Of a DNA stretch of 64,000 nt, positions 12,396-55,999 are shown piece after piece. A program made the position numbers and the translations under genes. The notes under the pieces were generated by a model. That model was not told the origin of the DNA. It made no database searches and saw nothing but the letters and a program-made list of their open reading frames with translations. Every line of letters starts with the position of its first letter. Within the stretch, counting starts at the first letter, position 1. Source of the stretch: Oscillospiraceae bacterium (GTDB lineage Bacteria > Bacillota > Clostridia > Oscillospirales > QAMX01); the NCBI GenBank assembly GCA_015067715.1, contig SVLY01000007.1, positions 1,729-65,728 on the forward strand. Reading direction: 5' to 3'.

Positions 12396-12425
12396 GCGTT
12401 TATCGCTTCAAAGCCGGAAAGATCT

Positions 12426-13456: not shown

Positions 13457-13472
13457 GACAACAGTCTTTCCC

Positions 13473-13508: not shown

Positions 13509-13544
13509 ATCTTGGGGAACAGGCGCGAACCGCGCGGAAAAGTA

Positions 13545-13573
13545 TTGCAAAATTCTTTGCTACATGGTATAAT
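13545..13573 (+). promoter_or_regulatory. sigma-A promoter with extended -10
   Basis: TTGCAA, 17 nt, TGgTATAAT. Confidence 0.7.
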
Positions 13574-13710
13574 TTACGGAGTATTTACAATGGTTTTACC
13601 TTTGAGTAACACCTGAGTCAAGTTTTATGGTGTATTATACTCAGGATGAAAACTTAACTGGGGCGCAAAGAACTTTGCGTTCCCTTTGAACAAAACGGGG
13701 GTATGAAGTT
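13574..13710 (+). promoter_or_regulatory. ~135-nt structured 5' leader of the ABC operon, class unknown
   Basis: Stems CCTGAGT...ACTCAGG and GCGCAAAG-AAC-TTTGCG(T). A 3-codon uORF (ATG AAG TTT TGA) overlaps the TTG start. Confidence 0.3.
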
Positions 13711-29190: not shown

Positions 29191-29233
29191 TATCTTGACA
29201 AATTATGGTTTCGGAACGGACGGTATATTCGGG

Positions 29234-37569: not shown

Positions 37570-39816
37570 CTAAAAGCGGTTGACCCAGCCGGCGAAGACA
37601 ACCATGGGAACGGTCCAGATAAGGTAGTAGAGCAGCATGTTCACGGGAGTTGCCGCCTCGTACCAGCCGAAATACGCCATGACCGCGCCGAAGGCAAGGC
37701 CTATAAGGGAGGATATGAGAGAGAAGATCAGTCCCACGCGGGATGCGGAGCGGGCTCTGTGGCAACCCACAAGGGTCTGGGCAAGGGCGCTTCCCGTGGG
37801 GTTGAGGGTGACGATGGCCTTTGCATCCAGAGTGTTTGCAGAGTTGGACATGACCGCGCGGATATTAGCCTTGGGGTAGACGACCTCGGCAGAGGGTATG
37901 CCGAAACGGTCCTGTATCATTGCGGAGGTGATGTTTACGTCCCTTGTGGCAAGGATCGGGAAATAGCCGTTGTGGTCAAGAAGGCTTACGGTGTAGTCGT
38001 TGGAGGAGGTCACGTCGTAATGCATGGCGTAAACGGCGATAAGTCTGTCCTCAACGGCACAGCAGATAGCCGTGCGGAGCTTGACGTCCTCGGGGGTCTT
38101 GATGCCGCAGCACTGAATAAAGGAGCAGGTGCCAACCATGACCTTTTTACCCTCAACGGTGCCGGTGTAGCCGCCGTTGTCGCTGATGGTGACGTCGGTC
38201 ACGGGGACAAGGGGAATGCAGAGCTTTCTGGCCTTGTCAACAAAGGGGTCTGCCAGAACGGTCTGGGCGGCAGAGAGAAGGCTTGCGGTGAGGGAGAGGG
38301 GAGTGTTTTCGTCGTCGGTCACCCGGGTGGCCTTGATGGAGACGGACTGGGAGGGGAAGAGGTCACGGTCCCGGAGCATAACGAAGCTTCTCCGTGCAAG
38401 GCGGCCGCAGGCGGCAACGCCGCCGGTGTTAACACCGTCACGGGCAAGGCGCTTTGAGAGCTTTGCGTGGGGCAGAACGTAGGCCAGGAAAAATCCCAGT
38501 GCGGGGGTAAAGCTGATTATAACGGACCAGTTCCAGAAGAAGGGAGTGCTTCCGCTTCCGAAATAGCTCACATAGACCGCAAGCAGAAGGGAAACTGCGA
38601 TGAGCACCGGGGCAAACCAGCGCATCATGCGGGTGACGGTGTCGTTTTCGGCAAAGCTGTTGAAAAAGCCGGAAAGGTCACGGGACGCCGCAGAGGCGTA
38701 GACGGTGTCGCCGTCGAATTTGTCCCGGAGGGGAGCGACGGTGTAGGCCGAGGTGAGACGGTGGGTCTTGATGATGGAGCTTCTGTAGGTGCGGACGCGG
38801 ATCCTGTCGCCGATAAGGGAGAACAGCAGACCCAGCGCCGGGAGCACGCAAACGGGAGCCAGCACCGGGGCAGCCTCGTCGCCGTACATGGTGCTCTTGT
38901 CGATTATTGATACAACGCAGTGACCGATGGAGGCCAGGGACGATGCAAAGATCAGCGAATCCGCCGTGGCGCGGAGGGTGAGAAGGGCGTAACAGCCGCC
39001 AAAATAGATGTCGTAGGCGGTGATGATAACGGCGCCCAGCAGAGCCATGGAGATAAGGGTGAACACGACGGGGTTGGAGGCGTAGCTCATAAACTCCGGC
39101 AGGGGCAGGTGGAGATAGCTTGCGGCGGTCATGTAGACCAGGGGCAGGCAGAATACCGTGGCAAGCACTGTGCGGACGGTGAGGGAGCGAAGCTCTTTGT
39201 CCAGCTTGCGGAGCATCTGACGGGGCTCGACCTTGGCGTGGCGGATGACCTTTTTGCGCAGGCTTGCCGGGACGGGAATACGCTTTTTGTTGTTGAGCGT
39301 TGCGGGAATAACGGCTCCGATGCTGCGCTTTTTAAGCTTTTTGGAGTTCAGCTTTTTGATGGCCTTGGAATTGGCCTTAAGCTGACGGCGCATATTGCGT
39401 ATGCTGTGGGCGCGCTTGCGGTAAGCATCGTCGTAAGCGCCGATGTCGATAACGTTGTCCTCTTCCTCGGAGCCCTCGACCTTCAGTTCCTCTGCAGAGG
39501 GCACAGGACGGCTGTTTACCCGGGATTTTTTGATGTTCTCGAAAAGCTCGGGCTGAACCTCTTCGGACTTTTCTTCGGGTTCAGGCTTGGGCTCGGGCTT
39601 AGGCTCGGGCTTAGGCTCGGGTTTGGGCTCGGGCTTGGGCTCCGGCTTGGGCTCGGGCTTAGGCTCGGGCTTAGGCTCGGGTTTGGGCTCGGCTTTAGGA
39701 GCGGGGGGAGTTGGAGGAGGGGCTTCCTTTTTGGGAGCGGGAGGAGTTTTTCCGCCGAACTCGGCAATTATGGATTCAAGGGAAAACTCGTCGTTGAACT
39801 TGTTGTCGTTGGCCAC
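37570..39816 (-). CDS. polytopic membrane protein: N-terminal (KPEP)n-repeat region + degenerate P1B-type ATPase-like body lacking catalytic motifs
   Basis: GTG start. Colinear with heavy-metal P-type ATPases, but DKTGT is replaced by LRDRDLF, CPC by FTP, TGD by ATRD, GDGxND by LNPTGS, and the actuator (TGES) region is missing. Confidence 0.55.
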   Translation of the reverse strand: MANDNKFNDEFSLESIIAEFGGKTPPAPKKEAPPPTPPAPKAEPKPEPKPEPKPEPKPEPKPEPKPEPKPEPKPEPKPEPEEKSEEVQPELFENIKKSRVNSRPVPSAEELKVEGSEEEDNVIDIGAYDDAYRKRAHSIRNMRRQLKANSKAIKKLNSKKLKKRSIGAVIPATLNNKKRIPVPASLRKKVIRHAKVEPRQMLRKLDKELRSLTVRTVLATVFCLPLVYMTAASYLHLPLPEFMSYASNPVVFTLISMALLGAVIITAYDIYFGGCYALLTLRATADSLIFASSLASIGHCVVSIIDKSTMYGDEAAPVLAPVCVLPALGLLFSLIGDRIRVRTYRSSIIKTHRLTSAYTVAPLRDKFDGDTVYASAASRDLSGFFNSFAENDTVTRMMRWFAPVLIAVSLLLAVYVSYFGSGSTPFFWNWSVIISFTPALGFFLAYVLPHAKLSKRLARDGVNTGGVAACGRLARRSFVMLRDRDLFPSQSVSIKATRVTDDENTPLSLTASLLSAAQTVLADPFVDKARKLCIPLVPVTDVTISDNGGYTGTVEGKKVMVGTCSFIQCCGIKTPEDVKLRTAICCAVEDRLIAVYAMHYDVTSSNDYTVSLLDHNGYFPILATRDVNITSAMIQDRFGIPSAEVVYPKANIRAVMSNSANTLDAKAIVTLNPTGSALAQTLVGCHRARSASRVGLIFSLISSLIGLAFGAVMAYFGWYEAATPVNMLLYYLIWTVPMVVFAGWVNRF
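39577..39692 (-). repeat. in-frame tandem repeat, 12-nt period (KPEP), with 60-nt higher-order duplication
   Basis: GGCTCGGGCTT(A/G) units. The 47-nt stretch 39586-39632 is identical to 39646-39692. Confidence 0.9.
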
Positions 39817-43148: not shown

Positions 43149-43958
43149 ATGCAGGTCATGCTTTTCGGCGGAGATATGCGAACGGTCCGGCTGGCCGGAT
43201 GTTTTGAAAGGGACGGAAACGGAGTTTTTCTTTGGGGGCTTGACAAGGCGGGTCTTCCTTCGGCGGAGCTTGGGCGCGTCCGGGATGCGGATTTGCTGGT
43301 TCTGCCCTACCCCTGCTTCGACGGGGAGCTTATCCGCGCGCCCTTTGGGACAGAGCGCCTGAGCTTTGATGAGCTATGCGCTCTTGCCGGGGATAGGCCT
43401 GTTTTTGCCGGAGCGCCGGGTATTGCAGGAAAAAACGGAGTGAAGCTCTTTGACTACGCAACGGAGCGCCTTCTTGCCCAAAACGCCCGGCTCACCGCAG
43501 AGGGTGCGCTGGCAATTGCCGTGAACGAAATGCCCGTTTCCCTTTCCGGGGCGGAGATACTGGTCTCCGGCTGCGGAAGGATAGGCCGGGAGCTGGCGGT
43601 GATGCTGGGCGCTCTGGGGGCAAGGGTGAGCATTCTTGCCTGGCGGCAGGAGAGTATCGTCTGGGCTCAGCGCCACGGGTGCGGACTTTACCGTGGCGGC
43701 GGCCTTGGCAGCTTTGACTGTGTTTTCAACACCGTGCCACGGTGTGTGTTTGACTACGGGGAGCTTAGCTCTGCGGGGGAGGATTGTCTCTTCGTGGAGC
43801 TCGCCAGCTCCCCGGGAGGTATCGACAGAGCTTCGGCGCGGACTCTTGGCCTGCGGCTTATATGCGCCCCGGGACTTCCGGGAAAGACCGCCCCGGCCAC
43901 CGCCGCCGAAATTATATATAAAGAGATAATGACTCTTTGGGAAACGGAGGAGATATGA
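43149..43958 (+). CDS. spoVFA: dipicolinate synthase subunit A
   Basis: Rossmann motif SGCGRIGRELA. Followed by the flavoprotein B subunit. Confidence 0.8.
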   Translation: MQVMLFGGDMRTVRLAGCFERDGNGVFLWGLDKAGLPSAELGRVRDADLLVLPYPCFDGELIRAPFGTERLSFDELCALAGDRPVFAGAPGIAGKNGVKLFDYATERLLAQNARLTAEGALAIAVNEMPVSLSGAEILVSGCGRIGRELAVMLGALGARVSILAWRQESIVWAQRHGCGLYRGGGLGSFDCVFNTVPRCVFDYGELSSAGEDCLFVELASSPGGIDRASARTLGLRLICAPGLPGKTAPATAAEIIYKEIMTLWETEEI

Positions 43959-43959
43959 G

Positions 43960-44541
43960 TTGACCCAAAATAACGGGATCCGCATCGGCTTTGCCCTTTG
44001 CGGTTCATTCTGTACCTTCGGCCGGGTTATCGGCGTTATGAAAGATCTTGCCCAAAAGGGCTATTCCATTTTGCCTATAATGAGCACGGCGGCATCCACC
44101 ACGGACACGCGCTTTGGAAAAGCGGAGGACTTTATTTCCGAGATAAGGGATATCTGCGGCGCCGAACCCGTGCTGACCATAGACCGGGCAGAGCCCATAG
44201 GCCCCAAAAAGCTCATCGACGTGCTTGTTGTGGAGCCCGCAACGGGAAACACCCTTGCAAAGCTTGCCGCAGGCATTGCGGACGGACCGGTGACCCTTGC
44301 GGTGAAGTCACAGCTTCGCAACGGCCGACCTGTGGTTATCGCCGTTTCCACCAACGACGCTCTCGGGGTGAACGCAAAAAGCATCGGTGTGCTTGCCGCG
44401 AGAAAGAATATCTATTTCGTCCCCTTCGGCCAGGATGACCCGGGGGCAAAGCCCTGCTCCGCGGTTGCGGATTTTTCCCGCACCGAGGAGGCCGTGCTCG
44501 CCGCCCTTGCGTCAAAACAGCTTCAGCCCCACCTGATATAG
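43960..44541 (+). CDS. spoVFB: dipicolinate synthase subunit B
   Basis: GFALCGSFCTF flavoprotein motif. TTG start 6 nt after a GGAGGAG SD. Confidence 0.85.
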   Translation: MTQNNGIRIGFALCGSFCTFGRVIGVMKDLAQKGYSILPIMSTAASTTDTRFGKAEDFISEIRDICGAEPVLTIDRAEPIGPKKLIDVLVVEPATGNTLAKLAAGIADGPVTLAVKSQLRNGRPVVIAVSTNDALGVNAKSIGVLAARKNIYFVPFGQDDPGAKPCSAVADFSRTEEAVLAALASKQLQPHLI

Positions 44542-44547
44542 ATAATG

Positions 44548-44589
44548 AAGGGACCGTCCCTCTTTTTTTGAGCGGACGGTCCCTTCGTT
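44548..44589 (+). terminator. rho-independent terminator
   Basis: 13-bp stem GAAGGGACCGTCC / GGACGGTCCCTTC. Confidence 0.75.
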
Positions 44590-44655
44590 TGCGAATAAAT
44601 ATCTCCTTTGACGGGAAGAATAGAGTTAAAGGTACTTTTTTGGGGAGGTCTTAGG

Positions 44656-45345
44656 TTGAAAATGATTTCGGCTGTGAGAAAGAACGGCCGCGCCCTTCGG
44701 GTCACGGCGGTTTTGTTACTTATCGTTGCTCTTACTTTGTCGCTGTCCTTTGGAACGGGCGCCAGCTATCGCCGGGGGGACAGCGGCGAAATGGTCACCC
44801 AGATACAGACCAAGCTGAAAAACTGGGGCTATTACACCGGTGAGGTGGACGGCATCTTCGGCTCACAGACGGAGAGCGCCGTGAGGTATTTTCAAAAGCG
44901 CAACGGCCTTGCCGTGGACGGCATAGTTGGCAGGCAGACTCTGTCGGCGCTGGGGCTTAAGGACACGGCGTCCTCCGGAGCGGGGGCCTATTCCTCGGAG
45001 ATACAGCTTCTTGCCCGTACCATTGCCGCAGAGGGCAGGGGGGAGAGCTATCTTGGACAGGTGGCAATCGGCGCGGTGATCATGAACCGTGTGGAGCACT
45101 CTTCCTTTCCCAACACCATCTCCGGGGTGGTCTACCAGGCGGGAGCCTTTGAGGCCGTGCTCAACGGCCACATATGGGAAACCCCTGTGCCGCAGAGCTG
45201 TATGCGCGCGGCTGTGGAGGCATATAACGGCTACGACCCCACCTACGGCTGTCTTTATTACTATAACCCGGCAAAGACCAGCAATGCGTGGATGACCTCC
45301 CGGCCGGTGCACATGGTCATCGGCTCACACTATTTCTGCAAATAG
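44656..45345 (+). CDS. sleB: spore cortex-lytic enzyme SleB-like (PG-binding domain + hydrolase_2 domain)
   Basis: GDSGEMVTQIQTKLKNWGYY...DGIFG PG-binding repeat and IAAEGRGESYLGQVAIGAVIMNR. TTG 44656 lies 7 nt after GGAGG. ATG 44662 is an alternative start. Confidence 0.8.
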   Translation: MKMISAVRKNGRALRVTAVLLLIVALTLSLSFGTGASYRRGDSGEMVTQIQTKLKNWGYYTGEVDGIFGSQTESAVRYFQKRNGLAVDGIVGRQTLSALGLKDTASSGAGAYSSEIQLLARTIAAEGRGESYLGQVAIGAVIMNRVEHSSFPNTISGVVYQAGAFEAVLNGHIWETPVPQSCMRAAVEAYNGYDPTYGCLYYYNPAKTSNAWMTSRPVHMVIGSHYFCK

Positions 45346-46333: not shown

Positions 46334-46496
46334 GAGTTATATTCGCCTTGCGGCGAGTTATATTTGCCTTGCGGCAAGTTATATTCGCCTTTGGCGAGTT
46401 AGCTTGAACTGAGGCCAAACTCGGCGCAGCCGAATATAACTTGGACGAAGTCCAAATATAACTGCGAAGCAATATAACTGCGAAGCAATATAACTC
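46334..46496. repeat. 163-bp MITE-like palindromic element with 10-bp perfect terminal inverted repeats and 3+4 subterminal GTTATAT heptamers
   Basis: GAGTTATATT (46334-43) pairs with AATATAACTC (46487-96). Forward GTTATAT sits at 46336, 46357 and 46378 (21-bp phase). Reverse ATATAAC sits at 46434, 46456, 46472 and 46488. Confidence 0.85.
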
Positions 46497-47971: not shown

Positions 47972-48814
47972 ATGGAGCGGAAAAACGTGACCTGGGAGGG
48001 ATGCGCCGTGGGCGAGAGTATTTGCAGATTCATTCCCGTAAAAAGGGCGGACGAGGGCATTAACACCCTGAATTTTGTTTACGAGGCAGACAGCTCTGCC
48101 ATAAAGCGCCCCTTTCTGCGGAGCGCGTATATGCTCCACATAGTTACCTCGGGCAGCGCCGTGCTTGAAATGGGAAACGAAAAATACCCTTTGAAAAAGG
48201 GGGATATCTTTCTCGCCTTTGCCGCCGTGCCCTACGAGATAACCCGGGACGAGGATCTGAGCTATATGTACATCACGTTTATCGGAATGCGGGTGAGGTC
48301 GCTTTTCGAGGAGCTTGGCATAAGCCGAAGCCGTCCGGTGTATTCGGGGCTTGGGCATCTGCTTCCCTTTTGGGAAAACGCCCTTGCCATGCTCGTGCCT
48401 GCCAACGCAAATATCCTTGCGGAGAGCGTTTTGCTCTTCACCCTTTCCCACATGTGCTCTTCGCCCCGGGAAAAAAACCAGCCGGAGGAGAGCTTTTCTC
48501 CCGCCGGGGACATAAAGGCCTTTGTGGACAGCCACTATACCGACCCGGAGCTGAGCCTGAAGGTCCTGTCACAAAAATTCTCCTACAGCGAAAAATACAT
48601 CTCTGCCATGTTCAAAAAACACGTGGGCACGGCCTTTTCCGACTACCTCAGGGATCTTCGCATACAGCGTGCCTGCCAGCTCATGGACGAGGGCGTGACG
48701 GTCATGTCCGAGGTTGCCGCCATGAGCGGCTTTAAGGATCCCCTGTATTTTTCAAAGGTGTTCAAGGCAAAAATGGACCGCTCCCCAAGCGGGCATATGA
48801 AGCTGAGAAGATAG
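47972..48814 (+). CDS. AraC family transcriptional regulator
   Basis: Cupin-like N-domain plus a C-terminal double HTH (ISAMFKKHVGTAFSDYLRDLRIQRACQLM). ATG 47972 lacks an SD. In-frame GTG 48008, preceded by GGGAGGGA, is an alternative start. Confidence 0.85.
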   Translation: MERKNVTWEGCAVGESICRFIPVKRADEGINTLNFVYEADSSAIKRPFLRSAYMLHIVTSGSAVLEMGNEKYPLKKGDIFLAFAAVPYEITRDEDLSYMYITFIGMRVRSLFEELGISRSRPVYSGLGHLLPFWENALAMLVPANANILAESVLLFTLSHMCSSPREKNQPEESFSPAGDIKAFVDSHYTDPELSLKVLSQKFSYSEKYISAMFKKHVGTAFSDYLRDLRIQRACQLMDEGVTVMSEVAAMSGFKDPLYFSKVFKAKMDRSPSGHMKLRR

Positions 48815-48829
48815 CCATTGCGTCGGCAG

Positions 48830-48926
48830 GCCCCCACCGCCCCTGCGGGGCACCTCCCCCGATGGGGGGAGGTTTTTTGCGTATGCCTGTAAAGATAGGA
48901 TAGTGCTAAAAATAAAAGCACGTACC
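48830..48926 (+). repeat. repeat module A, copy 1
   Basis: A double GC hairpin, then TTTTTGCGTATGCCTGTAAAGATAGGATAGTGCTAAAAATAAAAGCACGTACC. The same module occurs at 51441-51531 and 54675-54763. Confidence 0.9.
48839..48878 (+). terminator. rho-independent terminator of AraC-family gene (part of repeat module A)
   Basis: GCCCC-TGC-GGGGC, then CCTCCCCC-GAT-GGGGGGAGG, followed by T6. Confidence 0.8.
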
Positions 48927-49001
48927 CAAGGCTCCCTCTCCGAGGGAGCTGGATCGGCCAAAGGCCGAGACTGAGGGAGTGAATGCACCGGCGTATCATC
49001 C
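48927..49001 (+). repeat. 75-nt repeat module B, copy 1
   Basis: CAAGGCTCCCTCTCCGAGGGAGCTGGATCGGCCAAAGGCCGAGACTGAGGGAGTGAATGCACCGGCGTATCATCC. Confidence 0.95.
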
Positions 49002-49045
49002 CATGTGCCTCTCCCGGCGACATTATGCCAAAGGCGACCTTTTCC

Positions 49046-49118
49046 GGACGCCCCGGGAGGGGCGTCCCTACGGGCGCAAAGACAACCCCTGCGCCGTAGG
49101 GGCGAACTGCGTTCGCCC
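49046..49118. repeat. REP-like head-to-head palindrome doublet 1
   Basis: GGACGCCCC-GGGA-GGGGCGTCC + CTAC, 24-nt linker GGGCGCAAAGACAACCCCTGCGCC, then GTAG + GGGCGAAC-TGC-GTTCGCCC. Confidence 0.85.
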
Positions 49119-49259
49119 GTTTCGCGTATCATCCCCGGGTTCAAATCCCGGCAACACCGTGCCGATGGCGACGTTTTCGGGCGATTTTCAAATCGTCCCG
49201 CGCAACCTACTGCCAAACGATCGTCACAATCGAGCCCGCCTGCAGATTACTGCAAATAA

Positions 49260-49649
49260 TTACCCTCCATTGATATCCCAAATGGAAAGTACATCGCCTT
49301 CCGAGGTAATGATAGTCCCTATGGTCTCACCTAAGCCCGGAATATATCCAAGCACAATCCACATATCAGACTCAGGGTCATATCCAACTCGATGCGGAAA
49401 ATACCGCAAGGTTTTCTCCAAACCAAATTCATCTATCCACAACCATAGCGTCTGCCAACGGACCTGGCGCGCATTATGTACTTCTCCAACCCGAATATCG
49501 CCATACAAAGGTTCATGAGTCGGAAGGAACTCTCTATTAACCGGAATCTCGTAGTAATTCGGATTTATCAACATCGTTGCCCATATCACCATTACAGCTA
49601 CCAGAAAATATACCACCGTTAACAGAACCGTTTTGCACACATTTTTCAT
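49260..49649 (-). CDS. hypothetical small membrane-anchored protein
   Basis: 129 aa from MKNVCKTVLLTVVYFLVAVMVIWATML (AGGTGAGG SD). AT-richer than the flanking chromosome. Bracketed by repeat blocks. Confidence 0.6.
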   Translation of the reverse strand: MKNVCKTVLLTVVYFLVAVMVIWATMLINPNYYEIPVNREFLPTHEPLYGDIRVGEVHNARQVRWQTLWLWIDEFGLEKTLRYFPHRVGYDPESDMWIVLGYIPGLGETIGTIITSEGDVLSIWDINGG

Positions 49650-49723
49650 GTTCCAATACCTCACCTAAGCGGATGATTCGGCTCATATACAATATCCTCG
49701 CATATAATTTCCCCATACGGATC

Positions 49724-49798
49724 CAAGGCTCCCTCTCCGAGGGAGCTGGATCGGCCAAAGGCCGAGACTGAGGGAGTGAATGCACCGACGTATCATCC
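49724..49798 (+). repeat. 75-nt repeat module B, copy 2
   Basis: Identical to copy 1 except for one G>A change. Confidence 0.95.
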
Positions 49799-49840
49799 CG
49801 CTTGCCTCTCCCGGCAACACCGTTCCGATGGCAAGTTTGC

Positions 49841-49912
49841 GGGCGTTCACAGAACATCCCTACCGGGCGCAAAGGTTAACCTGTTACACCTTAGGGGCGA
49901 ACTGCGTTCGCC
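49841..49912. repeat. REP-like doublet 2 (degenerate)
   Basis: GGGCGTTCACAGAACATCC + CTAC, 27-nt linker, then TTAG + GGGCGAACTGCGTTCGCC. Colinear with doublet 1. Confidence 0.7.
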
Positions 49913-49973
49913 TGTTTCGCGTATCATCCCCGTGTTCAATCCCCGGCAACACCGTGCCGATGGCGACGTTTTC

Positions 49974-49997
49974 GGGCGTTTTTCAAATCGCCCCTAC
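49974..49997 (-). repeat. single REP-like palindrome with GTAG head
   Basis: Plus strand reads GGGCGTTTTTCAAATCGCCC + CTAC. It ends 4 nt before the stop of the 50001-50324 gene. Confidence 0.7.
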
Positions 49998-50000
49998 TGC

Positions 50001-50324
50001 TCACAGTAAGTCAGCCAAAACAGAAATAATTCCAAAAGAAAAACAAAACAGGCTCCCAACCAAATAATGAATTCCGCCCCATCGTTTTGCCCGGCTATCA
50101 GACTTATCTTTGGAGAATGAACGGTATCTGAAAACGTACTTAAGGATCCTGTTCAGGAATTTCGGACGAACACTAAAACCAAAAAACCACTCATAAAAGA
50201 GCGACCCAAATACCATCGCAATAAGCCACACTCCAGCAGATCTATGTTCAAGCACCAGTGCAACAACAAAACATACAATATTTATTACGAGGTAAGCCTG
50301 AGTCAATCGTTTCTTCCATATCAT
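50001..50324 (-). CDS. hypothetical small integral membrane protein (about 3 TM helices)
   Basis: 107 aa from MIWKKRLTQAYLVINIVCFVVALVL. AT-rich. The longer ORF in the track reads into repeats. Confidence 0.55.
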   Translation of the reverse strand: MIWKKRLTQAYLVINIVCFVVALVLEHRSAGVWLIAMVFGSLFYEWFFGFSVRPKFLNRILKYVFRYRSFSKDKSDSRAKRWGGIHYLVGSLFCFSFGIISVLADLL

Positions 50325-50444
50325 CCGTCCCACCGTTCTTTCACGTAACCAAACAAGTCTATAACTATCTCGCAATCCGAAACTGCGACCGCCCAACGCC
50401 CCCACATACCATTCCGCTGCATCGCGCCAACCGGCAACGTTTGC

Positions 50445-50516
50445 GGGAGGCTGATAGCGTCCCCTACGGGCACGAAGACCAACCTCGTACCGTAGGGCGG
50501 GGGCTTGCTCCCGCCG
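50445..50516. repeat. REP-like head-to-head doublet 3
   Basis: GGGAGGCT-GAT-AGCGTCCC + CTAC, 24-nt linker GGGCACGAAGACCAACCTCGTACC, then GTAG + GGCGGG...CCCGCC. Confidence 0.85.
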
Positions 50517-50520
50517 AAAT

Positions 50521-50558
50521 CCTGTGAAGGCACACGGTTTACACACTGTGTGAGGACA
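50521..50558 (+). repeat. 38-nt repeat module F, copy 1
   Basis: CCTGTGAAGGCACACGGTTTACACACTGTGTGAGGACA. Copies also at 51283 and 51726. Confidence 0.9.
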
Positions 50559-50582
50559 AGTCTTCCCCTCGCAGGGGAAGAC

Positions 50583-50634
50583 TTATATATGGGTCGATTT
50601 TCAAATCGCCCTACCGCAATTATTCATTATTCAT
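50583..50634 (-). repeat. repeat module G (REP-like palindrome + AT tail), copy 1
   Basis: TTATATATGGGTCGATTTTCAAATCGCC + CTAC + CGCAATTATTCATTATTCAT. It contains the stop codon of the DUF5104-like ORF. Confidence 0.85.
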
Positions 50635-51210
50635 TCGCCCCCCCCCCCGTGTCATCCCGTTCGCCTTTCCCGGCGACACTATATTAATTCCCGGAATCCA
50701 TTTTCCGTCACCGCGATATACATAATTCTCTGTCCAATTATTTGATTCAATAATATAGATAGACATAATCCCAATATTATTATCATCAAATTCGTCCTTT
50801 ATACACTCTTTGATAGCGATATAATATGTGTTTTCGGTTGTGTTGATGCAAAATGCAGACTGTATTTCCTTTCTCTTTTTCCCGCTTTCAATTCTATAGT
50901 CAGTCCCTACTCCCGCTTCCGATGCAGAAGAAAACGCAACTATATCACCATGAATAAACTCAAAAAACTTCAATGCCGATTGTGATAGATTGTCTACGCT
51001 ATTGTCTTCGCTTTTGATGGAATTAGAGAACATATCTACTATTTTCGAATCATCCTGTAAACTAATAGCAGTAATAATTTCGTTGAAAGTCTTATCTGCA
51101 ATTTTTTCATCATTATCTTCAAAAACACCCATACCAGTTCCTCCGTTAGAACAAGATGTAAAAGCCAATGTTAATATAAGCAGCATTATCAATAGAATCA
51201 CTTTCCTCAT
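50620..51210 (-). CDS. DUF5104-like lipoprotein
   Basis: Lipobox LTLAFTSC. About 35% GC by eye. Pattern FNEIITAI...DMFS...FFEFIHGDIV...YYIAIKEC. The last ~23 codons are encoded by repeat modules. Confidence 0.65.
   Translation of the reverse strand: MRKVILLIMLLILTLAFTSCSNGGTGMGVFEDNDEKIADKTFNEIITAISLQDDSKIVDMFSNSIKSEDNSVDNLSQSALKFFEFIHGDIVAFSSASEAGVGTDYRIESGKKRKEIQSAFCINTTENTYYIAIKECIKDEFDDNNIGIMSIYIIESNNWTENYVYRGDGKWIPGINIVSPGKANGMTRGGGRMNNE
50638..50648 (-). repeat. homopolymer C11 (G11 on coding strand) inside 3' end of ORF
   Basis: Eleven consecutive C residues at 50638-50648. Confidence 0.9.
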
Positions 51211-51282
51211 ATTTATCTCCTATGCTTAAAACTGAAGAATGGCTAATTCCAAATAATCATAAAATGACCAACGAGCCGAAAC

Positions 51283-51320
51283 CCTGTGAAGGCACACGGT
51301 TTACAATCTGTGTGAGGACA
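51283..51320 (+). repeat. 38-nt repeat module F, copy 2
   Basis: CCTGTGAAGGCACACGGTTTACAATCTGTGTGAGGACA. Confidence 0.9.
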
Positions 51321-51440
51321 CGGCCTCCCCTCGCAGGGCACAGTGAAGCCCTTCGGTCTTCACCGCAGGCGAGACTGATGAGGTGGAGCTTGCCAATGCG
51401 CCGCTGTTCGACATTGTGCCAAAGGCAGCCTTCACCTCAT

Positions 51441-51531
51441 CCGCCCCTTCGGGGCACCTTCCCCTGAAAGGGGAAGGCTTTTTGCGTGTGCCTGTAAAGA
51501 TAGGATAGTGCTAAAAATAAAAGCACGTACC
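51441..51531 (+). repeat. repeat module A, copy 2
   Basis: GCCCC-TTC-GGGGC + CCTTCCCCT-GAAA-GGGGAAGG + T5, then the conserved AT-rich stem-loop segment. Confidence 0.9.
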
Positions 51532-51606
51532 CAAGGCTCCCTCTCCGAGGGAGCTGGATCGGCCAAAGGCCGAGACTGAGGGAGTGAATGCACCGGCGTA
51601 TCATCC
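51532..51606 (+). repeat. 75-nt repeat module B, copy 3
   Basis: Identical to copy 1. Confidence 0.95.
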
Positions 51607-51649
51607 TGGTTGCCCCTCCCGGCAACACCGTACCGACGGCGACGTTTGC

Positions 51650-51720
51650 GGGAGGCTGATAGCCTCCCCTACGGGAGCGAAGACCAACCTCGTACCGTAG
51701 GGCGGGGGCTTGCTCCCGCC
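51650..51720. repeat. REP-like head-to-head doublet 4
   Basis: GGGAGGCT-GAT-AGCCTCCC + CTAC, 24-nt linker GGGAGCGAAGACCAACCTCGTACC, then GTAG + GGCGGG...CCCGCC. Confidence 0.9.
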
Positions 51721-51725
51721 GAAAC

Positions 51726-51763
51726 CCTGTGAAGGCACAAGGTTTACAAACTGTGTGAGGACA
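51726..51763 (+). repeat. 38-nt repeat module F, copy 3
   Basis: CCTGTGAAGGCACAAGGTTTACAAACTGTGTGAGGACA. Confidence 0.9.
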
Positions 51764-51836
51764 AGGCTCCCTCTCCGAGGGAGCTGGATCGGCCAAAGGC
51801 CGAGACTGAGGGAGTGAATGCACCGGCGTATCATCC
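51762..51836 (+). repeat. 75-nt repeat module B, copy 4
   Basis: Identical to copy 1. Confidence 0.95.
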
Positions 51837-51879
51837 CGGTTGCCCCTTCCGGAAACACCGTGCCGACGGCAATGTTTTC

Positions 51880-51905
51880 GGACGCCCCGGGAGGGGCGTC
51901 CCTAC
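51880..51905 (-). repeat. single REP-like palindrome with GTAG head
   Basis: GGACGCCCC-GGGA-GGGGCGTCC + CTAC. Confidence 0.85.
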
Positions 51906-51928
51906 GTTTTATTTATTCATTCGTCCCC

Positions 51929-51978
51929 CGTGCCCCCACCGCCCCTGCGGGGCACCTCCCCCGATGGGGGGGAGGTTT
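51929..51978 (+). repeat. repeat module A, partial copy 4 (hairpins only)
   Basis: GTGCCCCCACCGCCCCTGCGGGGCACCTCCCCCGATGGGGGGGAGG. Confidence 0.85.
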
Positions 51979-52029
51979 ATATATGGGTCGATTCGTGAAT
52001 CGACCCTACCGCAATTATTCATTATTCAT
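51977..52029 (-). repeat. repeat module G, copy 2
   Basis: TTATATATGGGTCGATTCGTGAATCGACC + CTAC + CGCAATTATTCATTATTCAT. Confidence 0.85.
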
Positions 52030-52093
52030 CAGCGAAGCGGCTTCATTATTCAATATTCATTTGTTCCAACGCATCATCCCGGTATTTAAATAT

Positions 52094-52117
52094 GGGCGAT
52101 TTAAAATCGCCCATACC
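52094..52117 (-). repeat. REP-like palindrome with variant head (GTAT)
   Basis: GGGCGATTT-AA-AATCGCCC + ATAC. Confidence 0.6.
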
Positions 52118-52330
52118 TCAACTCTTCACTCTTCTCTGTGCTCTGTTCACTGTTCTCTATATCCAACCTACGGGCGCATTTTACGCTTTCGCCGCGGCAA
52201 AAAGCCCCCCTTGCCGGGTGAGGGGTAGGGGGGATTCCGTAAGTCTTCCCCGGCAATACCGTGCCGAAGGCGACGTTTGCTTCGCTTGCCCTGCGTGAGA
52301 GGGCTCCCGAAAACGTCTGAGAAGATAAAG

Positions 52331-52373
52331 CAAAAACAGCCGCGCCCCTTTGAAAAAAACGGGGCGCGGCTTT
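52331..52373 (-). terminator. rho-independent terminator after the lipoprotein gene pair
   Basis: AGCCGCGCCCC-loop-GGGGCGCGGCT. The minus strand continues GTTTTTG. Confidence 0.8.
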
Positions 52374-52383
52374 GTAGTTGGTT

Positions 52384-53346
52384 CTATTCTGTCAATACGG
52401 TAACGGAATAGGGAATGTTGATCATAGCCGGGTCTATCGTCATAAAGAATCCGTCGTGTTCTAACCGCAGTACTGTGCCAACGGAGATATCCTGGGGAAG
52501 CCATTCCGGCTGCAGCTGTACCCGTTGGTTCGGAGAGTCTTTCTCAAGGTTTTCTGCAATTACCAGATCGCTTCTTATTTCAACCACCTTTACCGTCAGT
52601 GTCACAGAGGGACAGGTCAGCACAACGGAGCCTCCAACGGCGTAGACAGCGGCAAACTTTCCGTTGGCGCTCCAAAGATATTCTTCCGTCTCCCCGTCGG
52701 CCCAGACCTGAGAGCTTTCCGGCTCTCCCCATTTTTCAAGGAATTCTTCAAGGGGAATGCCCTTATAGGCGTTGCTTATATCGTCCTGCAAACCAAGGGC
52801 AAAAAACTCCTCGAGGGTCGGCGGATGGTTTCGGGATTCAATGCTTGCGGAATAGACCCTTTGAAAAGCCTCTCCGGGGTTGGAGGACTGCTCTTTTGAG
52901 ACCTCAAGCTTTAATACCGAGCCCACGGTGAGAGGGCCGTTTGAAGGGTCTACTTGGCTGACCGGAAGGTACGTCGACCTGCCTGCATAGCTTTCCGGAG
53001 AGGTGAGATGAAGAGATACTCTGTCCTCGCCCATGCCGTGCACTTTGGCCAAAACGGTGACGGATACCGAAATCAAGGTTACGTTTCCGTTTTTGTATTT
53101 AACTCTCAGGTATTTATCATTAACTCTCCATACGTCAAGCTCTTCACTCTCTGACTCGTAGGGGGGACCCCAGGCATCGAGGAGCTCGGACTTGCTCCTG
53201 CCCACACAGCTATCCAGAACAGCCTTATCACCCGTGAGCAGTTCGTCTATTTGGGGTAATCCGGCTGAAGATTCATCGGGCAGGGCGCCCCCGCAGGCGG
53301 AAAAAGCAAGGCAGAGAAAAAGTACTGTTGCAATGAGTTTTTTCAT
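52384..53346 (-). CDS. lipoprotein with two internal repeat domains, function unknown
   Basis: MKKLIATVLFLCLAFSAC lipobox. Internal duplication (ELLDAWGPPY...VTLISVSVTVLAKV and EFLEKWGEPE...VVLTCPSVTLTVKV). ATG 53346 has a GGAGG SD. Confidence 0.7.
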   Translation of the reverse strand: MKKLIATVLFLCLAFSACGGALPDESSAGLPQIDELLTGDKAVLDSCVGRSKSELLDAWGPPYESESEELDVWRVNDKYLRVKYKNGNVTLISVSVTVLAKVHGMGEDRVSLHLTSPESYAGRSTYLPVSQVDPSNGPLTVGSVLKLEVSKEQSSNPGEAFQRVYSASIESRNHPPTLEEFFALGLQDDISNAYKGIPLEEFLEKWGEPESSQVWADGETEEYLWSANGKFAAVYAVGGSVVLTCPSVTLTVKVVEIRSDLVIAENLEKDSPNQRVQLQPEWLPQDISVGTVLRLEHDGFFMTIDPAMINIPYSVTVLTE

Positions 53347-53366
53347 TGGGATAACCTCCTGTTCTC
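53291..53366 (-). repeat. shared 5' module (SD + signal peptide), copy 1
   Basis: About 76 nt with about 5 mismatches relative to 54235-54310. Confidence 0.9.
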
Positions 53367-54290
53367 CTATGGGTGCAGCTTCGGCTCCGTGCCGTAGATG
53401 GCGACGAAGGCATCGTAATCTTCGCTGTCGGCTGAGATCCAATCAACAAAATAACAGAGGGCGTATTCGCCGTTTCTTCTCACGATAAGCCATAGCTCAT
53501 CTTCCATACCTCTCACGCGGTAAATTCCGTCACAGCCCGTCGACCCTGCAATACGCTTGCCAAGGTAGGGCTCCGGCCAAGGCGAATCAACGGTGAACAC
53601 AACGTCATACAGAGCCGCATATCCGTTTTCGTCCACTGCATAAACAGGTCTTAAAAACTGACCGTTTGAAGTGAGGATATCTGCAATATCCGTCCGCAAG
53701 ACAAAAAACTTCGGACTTTTGGGCCGCATCACGGTCTTTGAATGCTCAACGGAATATCTGAACACCTCAGCCCTCAGCGCCCGGGCATTGGCTTTCTCCG
53801 GCTTTAACCCTTCGGAAACCAGCTGATCTGCGAGAGCTTCATTTTCGGATAAGCCCCAGACCTCAGCCAGATATCCGCAGGAAAACTCCATACAAAGATC
53901 CGCAACGGCATAGTTATAGAAATACCCGGGGCCAAAGTCTTCGTCCGGGAGCACGTAAGAGGTAAAATACTCCTGCCTTGCATATTTCTCCGGAGCTATC
54001 CCCAAAGCCCTGGCCTTTTCACAGCACTCATAATACAGCTCCTTCTGCCTCGCGGCAAGAGCATCCTTTCCGGGAGTAAACCCAAGGGTCTTGCTCAGAA
54101 CGTACAGCCTGTTCTCGAAATCCGCCCACAGCTCTTCCTCCGTGTTTTCAGCGGAGGAGATATAGTACTTTGAAAGCATGGTCCGTTTGACAAGTCTGCT
54201 TTCTGACGTAAAACATGCAGCCTCCGCTGTATCACCGCAGGCAGACAAAGCAAGGCAGAGAAAAAGTACTGTTGCAATGAGTTTTTTCAC
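53367..54290 (-). CDS. lipoprotein, function unknown
   Basis: GTG start and MKKLIATVLFLCLALSAC lipobox. The mature part is unrelated to the downstream paralog. Confidence 0.7.
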   Translation of the reverse strand: MKKLIATVLFLCLALSACGDTAEAACFTSESRLVKRTMLSKYYISSAENTEEELWADFENRLYVLSKTLGFTPGKDALAARQKELYYECCEKARALGIAPEKYARQEYFTSYVLPDEDFGPGYFYNYAVADLCMEFSCGYLAEVWGLSENEALADQLVSEGLKPEKANARALRAEVFRYSVEHSKTVMRPKSPKFFVLRTDIADILTSNGQFLRPVYAVDENGYAALYDVVFTVDSPWPEPYLGKRIAGSTGCDGIYRVRGMEDELWLIVRRNGEYALCYFVDWISADSEDYDAFVAIYGTEPKLHP

Positions 54291-54310
54291 GGGGATAACC
54301 TCCTGTTCCT
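54235..54310 (-). repeat. shared 5' module (SD + signal peptide), copy 2
   Basis: See 53291-53366. Confidence 0.9.
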
Positions 54311-54490
54311 GTCAGTATGGAACACAGCCAAGCACATCGTAACTCCGTTTTGCCTTTGTTGCCACCCCATGTGTGTGTTTGGATCCAATAGGCATATATT
54401 GCAAACGGATCAAAAGTGACAGTTCAGCTATGCACGCAATAATGCAGATACACGCAGAATACCGCTCCACTTCTTTTGCAATAGCCTAAA

Positions 54491-54520
54491 ATATTATCGA
54501 ATCAGCCCATAATTTGTCAA
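54491..54520 (-). promoter_or_regulatory. candidate sigma-A promoter for lipoprotein pair
   Basis: Minus strand reads TTGACA (54515-54520), 18 nt, TAATAT. This implies a ~190-nt AT-rich leader. Confidence 0.35.
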
Positions 54521-54612
54521 AACGTCTCGCCACAATTTGTTTACGTAATCAGTATAACATTCACGTCCTGTTGCTGTCAAGGATAAAAAGTAATTGTGAC
54601 CATGTTTTCTCT

Positions 54613-54650
54613 GTATTGCACAAAATTAACTTGTCGTTTTTGTGCAATAC
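54613..54650. repeat. perfect 13-bp-arm hairpin
   Basis: GTATTGCACAAAA-loop(12)-TTTTGTGCAATAC. Confidence 0.85.
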
Positions 54651-54674
54651 AACCAAGGGTCGGGGATTCTCCCC

Positions 54675-54763
54675 GTGCCCCCACCGCCCCTGCGGGGCAC
54701 CTTCCCCTGCTTTTTGCGTATGCCTGTAAAGATAGGATAGTGCTAAAAATAAAAGCATGTACC
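54675..54763 (+). repeat. repeat module A, copy 3 (second hairpin truncated)
   Basis: CCCCCACCGCCCCTGCGGGGCACCTTCCCCTGCTTTTTGCGTATGCCTGTAAAGATAGGATAGTGCTAAAAATAAAAGCATGTACC. Confidence 0.9.
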
Positions 54764-54838
54764 CAAGGCTCCCTCTCCGAGGGAGCTGGATCGGCCAAAG
54801 GCCGAGACTGAGGGAGTGAATGCACCGGCGTATCATCC
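54764..54838 (+). repeat. 75-nt repeat module B, copy 5
   Basis: Identical to copy 1. Confidence 0.95.
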
Positions 54839-54880
54839 TGCTTGCCTCTCCCGGCAACACCGTGCCAAAGGCGAGTTTGC

Positions 54881-54950
54881 GGGAGGCTGATAGCCTCCCC
54901 TACAGGCGCAAAGACAACCCCTGCGCTGTAGGGGCAGATATCATCTGCCC
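54881..54950. repeat. REP-like head-to-head doublet 5
   Basis: GGGAGGCT-GAT-AGCCTCCC + CTAC, 24-nt linker AGGCGCAAAGACAACCCCTGCGCT, then GTAG + GGGCAGAT-ATC-ATCTGCCC. Confidence 0.9.
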
Positions 54951-55018
54951 GCCGGGGGAACCCGCGCATCATCCCGTTTGCCTCTCCCGGCAATACCGTG
55001 CCGACGGCAACGTTTTCC

Positions 55019-55092
55019 GGACGCCCCGGGAGGGGCGTCCCTACGGGCAAACAGATAAACCGCACACCGTAGGGCGGGGGCTTGCTCCCGCC
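55019..55092. repeat. REP-like head-to-head doublet 6
   Basis: GGACGCCCC-GGGA-GGGGCGTCC + CTAC, 24-nt linker GGGCAAACAGATAAACCGCACACC, then GTAG + GGCGGG...CCCGCC. Confidence 0.9.
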
Positions 55093-55125
55093 GTTCCACG
55101 GCGTTATCTCCCGTATACCTTTTTT

Positions 55126-55151
55126 GGACGCCCCGGGAGGGGCGTCCCTAC
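55126..55151 (-). repeat. single REP-like palindrome with GTAG head
   Basis: GGACGCCCC-GGGA-GGGGCGTCC + CTAC. Confidence 0.85.
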
Positions 55152-55164
55152 GTTTTTGTTCACT

Positions 55165-55194
55165 AAATCAAAAGCCCCCTTTACCAAAGGGGGC
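55165..55194 (-). terminator. rho-independent terminator of IMPase gene
   Basis: GCCCCCTTT-ACC-AAAGGGGGC. The minus strand continues TTTTGATTT. Confidence 0.75.
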
Positions 55195-55204
55195 AAAGGG
55201 GGCA

Positions 55205-55999
55205 TCACTCTTCGATAAGCTCTTTCAGCTCTGCGTATGCAACTGGGTTTCCGGCCATGACGCTGTCCGGGGCGGAGAGGTCAAGGGGATCGCCGGAGAA
55301 ATTGGTTATCTTTCCGCCGGCTTCGGTTATCAGCAGAGCTCCTGCGGCGTAGTCCCAGGGGGAGAGGCGGAGCTCGTAAAAGGCGCAGAGCCTGCCTGCG
55401 GCGACGTAGGCAAGGTGGAGCGCCGCCGTGCCCAGGTTTCTTACGTCGATGCACTTGGCATAGACCCTTGAAAGCAGGGCCATGTGCCTGTCTGCAACGG
55501 TGCGGTCGTAGGGGGTGGAGCCATAGCCTGCCAGGCCGTGTTCAAGGTCACGGGCGGAGACCTGCATGGGCTCGCCGTTAAGGTAAGCTCCGCCGCCCAG
55601 CGTTGCGGAAAAGAGCTCGTCGGTATAGGGGCAGTAGACGGCCGCGGCAAGGGTGCGGTTGGCCTTCACGTCGCAAAGGGCAATGCTGACCGCGGAAAGG
55701 CGGAGGCCCATCATGAAGTTTGAGGTGCCGTCTATGGGGTCGACGACGAAGGCAAGGTCGGAGATAAGCTTTCCCTTTTCGGTATCCTCCTCGCCGAAAA
55801 AGCCTATCTCCGGGGAAAAGACCGAAAGCTCCCGGGCGATGTATTTCTGAACCGCAACGTCGCACTCGGTAACGTAGTTTGCCGTACCGGGTTTTTGGGT
55901 TATGCCGACGTCGGCGGGGTTTGTGCCGTACATGATGCGCCCGGCGCTTTTGGCAGTGAGGCACATGACCCGGCAGATCTCGTTTATATCTCTCGTCAT
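55205..55999 (-). CDS. inositol monophosphatase family protein
   Basis: FFGEE, VVDPIDGTSNF, and WDYAAGALLITEAGG motifs. Confidence 0.9.
   Translation of the reverse strand: MTRDINEICRVMCLTAKSAGRIMYGTNPADVGITQKPGTANYVTECDVAVQKYIARELSVFSPEIGFFGEEDTEKGKLISDLAFVVDPIDGTSNFMMGLRLSAVSIALCDVKANRTLAAAVYCPYTDELFSATLGGGAYLNGEPMQVSARDLEHGLAGYGSTPYDRTVADRHMALLSRVYAKCIDVRNLGTAALHLAYVAAGRLCAFYELRLSPWDYAAGALLITEAGGKITNFSGDPLDLSAPDSVMAGNPVAYAELKELIEE

Follow-up and report, generated by a model that had tools for sequence, protein, structure and literature searches.

A REP/BIME-like repeat family may frame a strain-variable islet of acquired genes in an uncultured gut Clostridia lineage

Repetitive extragenic palindromic (REP) sequences consist of a GC-rich palindrome with a 5' GT[AG]G at its foot, form inverted dimers with spacers of 20 to 100 nt, and occur in clusters (PMC2817692, PMC3733652, PMC6006769). 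GTAG REPs have been placed in Proteobacteria, Cyanobacteria, Chloroflexi, and PVC bacteria and not in Firmicutes (Di Nocera 2013 survey, PMC3733652), and Group 1 RAYTs (REP-associated tyrosine transposases) are present in Clostridia without abundant REPs (Bertels 2017, PMC5581495). Immunity genes are known to gather in tandem polyimmunity loci that vary between strains (PMC3482391) and in rAID-1 clusters, which are defined by a 5' XerD-like recombinase (bioRxiv 10.1101/471110). The subject of the present analysis is an island at positions 48815 to 55204 of a 64-kb window (the whole stretch of DNA that was analyzed, part of a contig of an Oscillospiraceae bacterium), in which five minus-strand open reading frames (ORFs), g1 to g5, are interleaved with blocks of palindromic repeats; positions in the window are given in window coordinates throughout. 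The host is an uncultured Clostridia bacterium of gut-type metagenomes. An earlier reading, made from the sequence only, had suggested that the island could be a cassette-array-like hotspot of a type not known to be described for Clostridia; both of its halves have close known counterparts, the repeats in REP sequences and bacterial interspersed mosaic elements (BIMEs) and the genes in polyimmunity or rAID-1 loci. We put at roughly 60% the probability that the island is a strain-variable stretch in which two unrelated things, dispersed mosaic repeats and genes, are interleaved, a REP/BIME-like dispersed repeat family framing an islet of genes gained by horizontal transfer, of which one or more are of the immunity type, beside a native lipoprotein operon.

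The pneumococcal BOX, RUP, and SPRITE elements and the bcr repeats of Bacillus cereus are likewise modular, hairpin-rich, intergenic, and lineage restricted. We expect no sequence relationship between them and the island; to our knowledge, BOX elements lack GTAG palindromes, and none of these families has been reported as a scaffold of immunity islets.

Palindromic repeats in the island and elsewhere in the lineage

In a scan for hairpins with GTAG or GTGG at their foot, 15 units were found between 49046 and 55151, on both strands; 200 dinucleotide-shuffled versions of the island contained 0.15 on average and never more than 1. Every unit had the same format (GTAGGG, a GC-rich stem of 8 to 9 bp, and a loop of 3 to 4 nt), and beyond the island the same scan of the window found only scattered imperfect matches. 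Two-thirds of the units (10 of 15) were joined in five inverted dimers, each consisting of palindrome-CTAC, a fixed 24-nt spacer, and GTAG-palindrome, and the partners within a dimer had stem sequences unlike each other (hetero-dimers). The dimer at 49046 to 49118, for example, reads GGACGCCCC-loop-GGGGCGTCC-CTAC, a 24-nt hairpin spacer, and GTAG-GGGCGAAC-loop-GTTCGCCC; the other four, of the same build, lie at 50445 to 50515, 51650 to 51720, 54881 to 54950, and 55019 to 55092.

Published REP sequences such as GTAGGGTGGGCTTCAGCCCACC are near look-alikes of these units (PMC2817692; PMC3733652; PMC6006769). The units share with the REP/BIME sequences of E. coli, Pseudomonas, Xanthomonas, and Haemophilus the 5' GTAG with a GC-rich palindrome of 20 to 26 nt, the extragenic location, and the presence of several stem subtypes per genome. 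They share with BIMEs the inverted hetero-dimers with GTAG inside ("TT" dimers in the terms of Di Nocera), the conserved spacer, the large mixed clusters, and the position at gene 3' ends. When location was checked against ORFs with protein evidence, all REP units lay between such ORFs, the sole overlap being the repeat-derived tail of g3 that is described below.

The REP units stand among further modules. A 60-nt core (GGCTCCCTCTCCGAGGGAGCTGGATCGGCCAAAGGCCGAGACTGAGGGAGTGAATGCACCG, + strand, at 48927 to 48986) recurs at 49724, 51532, 51762, and 54764; the copies were identical over the 38 nt tested and nearly identical further out. A module of about 50 nt, designated M4, alternates with the dimers and recurs every 132 to 136 nt, giving tandem units of roughly 134 nt; M1 is a double hairpin that reads as a + strand intrinsic terminator, and further modules include an AT-rich spacer and D6, as well as the T3 REP. 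These modules make up five blocks. Block b1 (48816 to 49203; 62% GC) contains M1, the AT-rich spacer, a core, M4, a REP dimer, M4', and a degenerate T3 REP, and b2 (49717 to 49997) is a paralog of b1 whose last element is a T3 REP at 49974 to 49997. Block b3 (50401 to 50682) contains a degenerate M4, the dimer that starts at 50445, D6, a T3 REP at 50593 to 50614, and an M4 fragment. Two cores, the dimer that starts at 51650, a solitary REP at 51880 to 51905, and a T3 REP at 51986 to 52009 are found in b4 (51275 to 52308; 58% GC), and b5 (54671 to 55156; 62% GC) consists of M1, the spacer, a core, M4, the last two dimers, and a solitary REP at 55126 to 55151. Together the repeats have a GC content of 57 to 62% and occupy about 39% of the interval; the spacer at 54291 to 55204 also includes about 380 nt of non-repeat promoter region, and b4 likewise has non-repeat stretches.

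Much of what the sequence-only reading had said of these blocks was borne out. The blocks do share modules, and the repeats exceed chance both in the 38-nt core piece, with five occurrences against 0 expected, and in the GTAG units; a blastn search of the blocks against the window placed all copies within 48816 to 55156, which agrees with the proposed confinement of the modules to the island; and the two blocks named as colinear paralogs (48927 to 49203 and 49724 to 49998) aligned at 48920 to 49199 and 49717 to 49994, with 84% identity over 283 nt. The description of the blocks as ORF-free was less apt, as they contain spurious ORFs of up to 162 amino acids, some of which are called genes in public annotations. 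Module matches between blocks were in direct orientation throughout. A reading of the blocks as miniature inverted-repeat transposable elements was rejected: there were no terminal inverted repeats, the inter-block matches were direct and the inverted ones only short local palindromes, and no unit bounded by target site duplications was recognized.

It seems very improbable that the blocks are primarily paralogous RNA genes rather than REP-type DNA elements, transcribed on the + strand (opposite to g1 to g5) into structured small RNAs or antisense RNAs by which the neighboring acquired genes are regulated or silenced. Such a role would fit the placement of all modules on one strand, the terminator-like + strand hairpins with T-runs at 48852, 51457, 51880, 54692, and 55126, and the near-invariant 60-nt core, a variant of which has a compensatory change in its first hairpin. 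It would also fit the strong predicted folding: in b1, a stretch of 286 nt folds on either strand into local hairpins set side by side (z = -3.5 for RNA and -4.1 for DNA). However, searches of Rfam with the whole window (gathering threshold) and the island (E ≤ 1) returned no credible family, the only match being a spurious one to sR45, and a scan of the modules found no + strand sigma-70-like promoter. Blocks are also present in convergent and divergent spacers without an antisense target, and GTAG heads on both strands fit an element that acts at the level of DNA. Three further resemblances within the modules were set aside: a tRNA T-arm-like "GGGTTCAAATCCC" was considered a chance resemblance (ARAGORN found no tRNA), a hammerhead-like "CTGATGAG" in a core variant had no Rfam support, and in a riboswitch-like alternative pairing of three GAGGGAG/CTCCCTC core copies the variant core compensates the local hairpin only.

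The repeat family extends beyond the island. Modules with 82 to 98% identity were found in at least eight other intergenic contexts (at least 10 distinct loci on lineage contigs). These include blocks of 1.8 and 1.0 kb flanking a VWA/SpaA pilin gene, a block between a gene of unassigned function and rubredoxin-ferritin, a block adjoining a GH106 gene, a block in the spacer that separates a divergently oriented LytTR regulator and ABC transporter (contig L040), and blocks downstream of a glutamate symporter and of polC. Block orientation was uniform within each locus examined. Approximately 170 kb of lineage sequence contained about 105 GTAG units, which fall into about eight stem types, and inverted dimers with the 24-nt spacer were also present in L034 and L038. 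Because some of the modules lie between housekeeping genes, they are not the cassette-specific sites that a likeness to a cassette array would imply; the same modules are found at rubredoxin/ferritin, LytTR/ABC transporter, glutamate symporter, and polC.

The family appears to be narrow and restricted to this lineage, since a repeat-derived spurious ORF used as the query matched only 25 of 5.8 billion proteins. Exact scans for the 38-mer in two public contig collections, one of genomes and one of metagenomes, gave 0 matches; a JGI contig from elsewhere contains the 38-mer, and thus both collections evidently lack the lineage. A scan of genome contigs with the inositol monophosphatase (IMPase) gene that borders the island found relatives of at most 39% identity (Blautia and Lachnospiraceae), without repeats.

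Two of the lineage contigs had additional features next to repeat blocks. In L040, a Gut-1 RNA (RF01706; 63 bits, above the gathering score) at 10318 to 10391 (- strand) and a tRNA at 10439 to 10511 (- strand; 65 bits; anticodon read as Thr-CGU) are both directly beside the repeat block in the LytTR/ABC transporter spacer. We know of Gut-1 RNA from gut metagenomes only and of no host or function assigned to it. In L041, a two-gene unit (a Rv2525c_GlyHyd-like gene and a gene for an uncharacterized protein of 264 to 281 amino acids) is tandemly duplicated at 5150 to 9927, with repeat blocks at 7310 to 7576 between the duplicated units and at 9925 to 10593 after the second. The duplicated unit may be another pair of a secreted enzyme and its partner.

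Arrangement of the interval in related assemblies

The sequences available for comparison were short-read metagenome assemblies, as the window probably is too, and most related contigs end in repeats. In the closest named assembly (GCA_017466765.1, contig L042; 97.7% identity), the order TrkH...CtsR-DUF4830-IMPase-b5-g5-g4 was conserved, and homology to the window ended at 52204, within a palindromic module, with the end of the contig in repeats. Another contig of the same metagenome-assembled genome (MAG), L050, carried a copy of g3 that was 98% identical and lay 0.7 kb downstream of dxr-rseP-ispG-polC. In ERZ28018926 (L045; approximately 95% identity), polC was followed by repeats, g3, repeats, g2, repeats, g1, and a b1-like block; the intergenic blocks at this polC locus were made of different modules than those of the window, and in the same sample a b1-like block follows g5-g4. 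A JGI contig that was 99.2% identical over the IMPase gene (L001) left the window inside M1, at 54673, and continued to rpmB-dapB-dapA.

Differences were also found within blocks. Block b5 differed from its counterpart in the conspecific MAG by module swaps, and at one orthologous site GTAGGGGCAGATATCATCTGCCC in the window corresponds to GTAGGGGCGAACTGCGTTCGCC in a strain with 97% identity, a swap of REP type in which both arms of the stem are changed. All of the divergence points that were located between assemblies fell in repeat modules. The position of g3-g2-g1 after polC and the joining of IMPase-b5 to rpmB-dapB-dapA suggest that the interval between the araC-family gene and the IMPase gene is not invariant. 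The sequence-only reading had proposed this comparison, and the arrangements in L001, L042/L043, L045, and L050 did differ, with the short-read nature of the assemblies to be borne in mind.

Mis-joins across near-identical repeats, with g3-g2-g1 truly located downstream of polC only, are an unlikely explanation for the window's arrangement or the alternative ones, although one with several points in its favor. The presence of g3 or g3-g2-g1 after polC was seen in three independent assemblies, most related contigs terminate in repeat blocks, and a single mis-join in 51653 to 52204 would be sufficient. L003, with 99.5% identity elsewhere, departs from the window in the interior of b4; its mosaic there is a different one, and a simple loss of 230 nt between two direct repeats was rejected as its origin. 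However, L002 was 100% identical across b4(left)-g3-b3-g2 and supports that arrangement, and the module content upstream of g3 differs between window-type contigs (L002 and L003) and polC-type contigs. Even if the join were wrong, the array of genes and repeats is reproduced in L045 to L049, and the repeat family is unaffected.

Genes of the island

The five minus-strand ORFs of the island had boundaries that matched those in the sequence-only reading, and the ORF listing reproduced its coordinates. Among them, only g3 (50620 to 51210), which encodes a lipoprotein, had Pfam support (DUF5104; E = 3e-17). This gene lies in foreign DNA of 33% GC (approximately 50677 to 51275). Its homologs, most of them on contigs of 1 to 2 kb, form a graded series in which identity declines from 97 to 45%, and the metagenome loci that carry them have a GC content of 35 to 49% and no repeat modules. 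The nucleotide identity between g3 and the homolog in L051 was 85% and included 65 nt upstream of the start.

In five of these loci, an ORF with RHS and DUF4474 features is directly upstream of the g3 homolog (L051, 3 to 827; L052, 1052 to 2212; L065, 3 to 788; L069, 1 to 555; L075, 3 to 617), and the DUF5104 lipoprotein gene lies within a few bases of it. The upstream ORFs were recognized by an RHS core-end motif and Pfam matches to DUF4474 (1e-13 to 9e-16), with RHS_repeat in L052. At other loci the neighbors of g3 homologs were transposase fragments or a DUF1963 protein. To judge from this gene order, an RHS/DUF4474 C-terminus followed by DUF5104 looks like the standard layout of a polymorphic toxin and its immunity protein. 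The AlphaFold model of g3 (pLDDT, 80.8) is NTF2-like, with 4r1k as the best PDB match (E = 1e-6; Foldseek), and Imm-NTF2 and Imm-Barstar are both listed immunity families (PMC3482391). A literature search found no mention of DUF4474 or DUF5104. Given the gene context of its homologs in other organisms, g3 is read as a candidate orphan homolog, acquired horizontally, of an immunity gene that is paired with RHS/DUF4474 toxins in low-GC gut Firmicutes.

A second islet of the lineage adds to the likeness to arrays of orphan immunity genes that the sequence-only reading had noted. On L038, seven small genes on the same strand are interleaved with four repeat blocks at 7443 to 14400 (approximately 6 kb), amid ordinary metabolic genes. 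Six of the seven have a GC content of 36 to 44% compared to 54.5%, and the first (7443 to 8000) has 57%. The products include a Barstar protein (E = 7e-17), without a barnase, and one with a weak match to DUF2019. The likeness fits g3, whose homologs follow RHS/DUF4474 C-termini, and the Barstar gene of L038; g1 and g2 lack informative relatives.

Repeat sequence also forms the 3' end of g3. The product is homologous to other DUF5104 proteins as far as residue 178, the final 18 codons plus the stop consist of repeat sequence, and block b3 overlaps the end of the gene at 50620 to 50682 (the last 21 codons). The repeat-derived tail places the insertion boundary inside the gene, which does not agree with the precise boundaries that cassettes would have. 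Within this tail there is a run of 11 C at 50638 to 50648 (G on the coding strand), and L045 has a shorter one. Slippage may occur here but would affect only the last few residues.

The other two candidate inserts gave less information. The g1 gene (49260 to 49649, - strand) encodes a signal-anchored protein of 129 amino acids from an orphan family; a word-indexed search found only its own 90% cluster, and an exhaustive search found 14 remote relatives of similar size, all weak (E ≥ 7.5e-8). The g2 gene (50001 to 50324, - strand; 107 amino acids), labeled a protein with three transmembrane segments in the sequence-only reading, had 95% nucleotide identity to L045. PADLOC and PDB sequence searches with g1 to g5 and the small L038 proteins gave no match. 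The insert segments of g1 (49204 to 49716), g2 (49998 to 50400), and g3 (50683 to 51274) have GC contents of 44, 42, and 33%, compared to 55.5% for the window. These three genes were probably acquired horizontally as single-gene, low-GC inserts.

The description of all five genes as AT rich therefore stood for g1, g2, and g3 (33 to 44% GC) but not for g4 and g5 (51 to 52%). The g5-g4 pair encodes lipoproteins of 307 amino acids (g5; 53367 to 54290, - strand) and 320 amino acids (g4; 52384 to 53346, - strand, of near-native GC). A sigma-70-like promoter site on the - strand at 54551 to 54580 (TTGACA, 18 nt, TATACT, with TG; 11 of 12 matches) precedes them, and an intrinsic terminator with an 11-bp GC stem and a T-run, read from the sequence, follows at 52330 to 52371 (- strand). 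The adjacency of g4-g5 to the IMPase gene is kept in the conspecific MAG. With a GC content of about 51%, a promoter-like site and terminator of their own, and this conserved neighborhood, g5 and g4 appear to be an ordinary native operon rather than two of five cassettes. The two genes have in common a 74-nt stretch (53291 to 53364 and 54235 to 54308; 95% identical) that covers the ribosome-binding site and the lipoprotein signal peptide, and outside this stretch the proteins are unrelated in sequence.

The island is bordered on the left by the gene for an AraC-family regulator (47972 to 48814, + strand; Pfam HTH_18 and AraC_binding) and on the right by the IMPase family gene (55205 to 55999, - strand; Pfam Inositol_P, E = 4e-51). 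The end of the AraC-family gene at 48814 and the presence of an IMPase terminator were as previously read, but the terminator scan put the latter at 55174 to 55203 (- strand) and not at 55165 to 55194. Other products encoded in the window include GyrB, GyrA, PolA, an EF-G-like protein, ProRS, and dipicolinate synthase. The gyrB-gyrA genes (718 to 4965) suggest that the window may adjoin the replication origin. Genes related to sporulation, for dipicolinate synthase A/B and a SleB-like cortex hydrolase, are found at 43149 to 45345, and thus the host is probably a spore former. Two short tandem arrays that are roughly mutual reverse complements (46334 to 46401, 21 nt by 3.3; 46455 to 46495, 16 nt by 2.6) lie in the spacer between a PAP2 gene and a GFO/IDH/MocA oxidoreductase gene and are not related to the island repeats. 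Two large ORFs, of 748 amino acids (37570 to 39816, - strand) and 862 amino acids (29195 to 31783, + strand), had no Pfam match at E ≤ 1e-5; the shorter one has an in-frame tandem repeat (12 nt by 9) at 39584 to 39692.

Gene ends, recombination, and significance

Repeats are arranged differently at native and at acquired gene ends. Native-GC genes (IMPase, g4, polC, rpmB, rubredoxin, and the pilin gene) have an intrinsic terminator of their own, and the repeats start beyond it. In several low-GC genes, the stop is followed at 0 to 10 nt by the same type of REP (GGGCGATTT-loop-AAATCGCCC). The T3 REP is at +3 nt from the stop of g2 and at +5 nt from that of g3, and g1 has a degenerate copy at approximately +46 nt; in a 135-amino-acid gene of L038, the GTAG head includes the TAG stop. 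A 26-nt relic without a gene, at 52004 to 52029, is a copy of the last codons and stop of g3 and of the REP head. For araC, the sole terminator-like hairpin is the M1 copy at 48852 to 48880.

Such an arrangement might suggest a site-specific cassette system of the integron or rAID-1 kind, in which a low-GC gene and its post-stop REP form a cassette and a recombinase or HUH enzyme encoded elsewhere reads the folded palindrome as IntI reads attC. Three co-directional low-GC inserts each with a T3 REP on the 3' side, the stop codon inside the GTAG head in L038, the gene-less relic of a 3' end plus REP, and the presence of the g3-g2-g1 set at another locus in other strains would all be in line with this. 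Low GC, co-orientation, and repetitive spacers are, moreover, features in common with rAID-1 loci (bioRxiv 10.1101/471110). However, g1 to g3 move jointly as a unit of about 3 kb and not singly, their upstream flanks are unlike (core, M4, and D6), the g3 boundary is within coding sequence, and the modules lie between housekeeping genes without a cassette. Neither the window ORFs examined nor the annotated contigs of the lineage contained an integrase, XerD-like, or Y1 gene. Thus, a cassette system is decidedly unlikely.

Likeness to integron arrays was limited to the one-orientation layout of genes and repeats and an imperfect palindrome directly following the 3' end of each small gene. The island differs in having no intI, attI, Pc, or attC core sites, in mosaic blocks of 0.3 to 1.1 kb, in grouped movement, and in imprecise boundaries. 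A regular-expression search (not a covariance model) for attC-type R''/R' pairs, RYYYAAC...GTTRRRY at a spacing of 40 to 130 nt, found 0 compared to 0.76 expected, and among the window ORFs examined no intI was found beside the array, which is flanked by araC and the IMPase gene. Thus, the integron likeness did not hold up, and the system is not an integron.

The islet has more in common with polyimmunity loci (Zhang 2012, PMC3482391) and the rAID-1 clusters of Bacteroidales (Ross 2019, bioRxiv 10.1101/471110): co-directional small genes of low GC with at least one candidate orphan immunity homolog, repetitive intergenic sequence, content and position that seem to vary between strains, and a gut habitat. 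Unlike rAID-1 clusters, it has no adjacent XerC/D-type recombinase and no 5' XerD-like recombinase among the ORFs examined, and of its three candidate genes one has evidence for an immunity function. Its repeats belong to a dispersed lineage family and are not specific to the cluster, the host is Gram positive, and the toxin is of the RHS type rather than a substrate of the type VI secretion system.

The absence of a recombinase from the window, claimed in the sequence-only reading, was borne out among the ORFs examined: a non-exhaustive survey of the window ORFs, by Pfam or by visual reading, turned up no domain of a recombinase or transposase. A crude search for the RAYT motif, in the window plus the lineage loci, gave no match, and neither a RAYT nor another recombinase was seen in the precomputed Pfam lists for about 150 kb of lineage contigs.

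Several points weigh against a REP/BIME-like family framing an islet of acquired genes. No RAYT or other recombinase that could spread the repeats was seen in the window or in about 150 kb of lineage contigs, and estimates of how many copies there are and how they are spread over the genome are extrapolations from fragmentary sequence. Unlike known REP/BIME families, the repeats are in a Clostridia host; the 60-nt core and several other long modules are not REP-like, and the single orientation of modules at each locus is atypical for freely transposing REPINs. A covariation count of the REP stems looks strong but is circular, as the units were picked as hairpins, and is not independent evidence; the swap of REP type at the orthologous site is better evidence. 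The immunity evidence is for g3 only and consists of gene context in other organisms, whereas g1 and g2 are without informative relatives. Contigs break or may mis-join at repeats, so that the "translocation" of g3-g2-g1 could be partly an artefact, and the one mis-join considered above could be enough to create the window's arrangement, which is a serious caveat.

In a REP/BIME-like repeat family framing an islet of acquired genes, the repeats would act at gene ends as stacked DNA or RNA hairpins, as suggested by the REP 0 to 10 nt past the stops of several low-GC genes and by M1 as the araC terminator. Near-identical copies in direct orientation would offer homology for recombination and gene conversion, by which genes and repeat modules could be moved, deleted, and swapped. 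Small accessory genes of the immunity type might then accumulate and shuffle at the repeats without a dedicated integrase. The repeats themselves may be spread by a RAYT-type HUH transposase encoded elsewhere in the genome. It is conceivable, but improbable, that GTAG-REP clusters go further and serve as an integrase-free platform for gene capture, the post-stop palindrome being an attC-like substrate for a single-strand-specific HUH enzyme of the RAYT type and orphan immunity genes from gut Firmicutes being inserted, stacked, and moved between clusters.

If the REP/BIME interpretation is correct, GTAG-REP clusters extend to an uncultured lineage of gut Clostridia, while surveys place them elsewhere, mainly in Proteobacteria. 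The locus is a concrete example of dispersed palindromic repeats that both frame acquired genes and fall at points of strain divergence. Short-read assemblies break up at these repeats, and MAG catalogues are therefore likely to underrepresent or misplace such accessory genes. The association of g3 homologs with RHS proteins suggests functions that can be tested, that of a toxin domain for DUF4474 and that of the matching immunity protein for DUF5104, and the islet suggests how Gram-positive gut bacteria might gather orphan anti-RHS immunity genes without a recombinase of the rAID-1 type.

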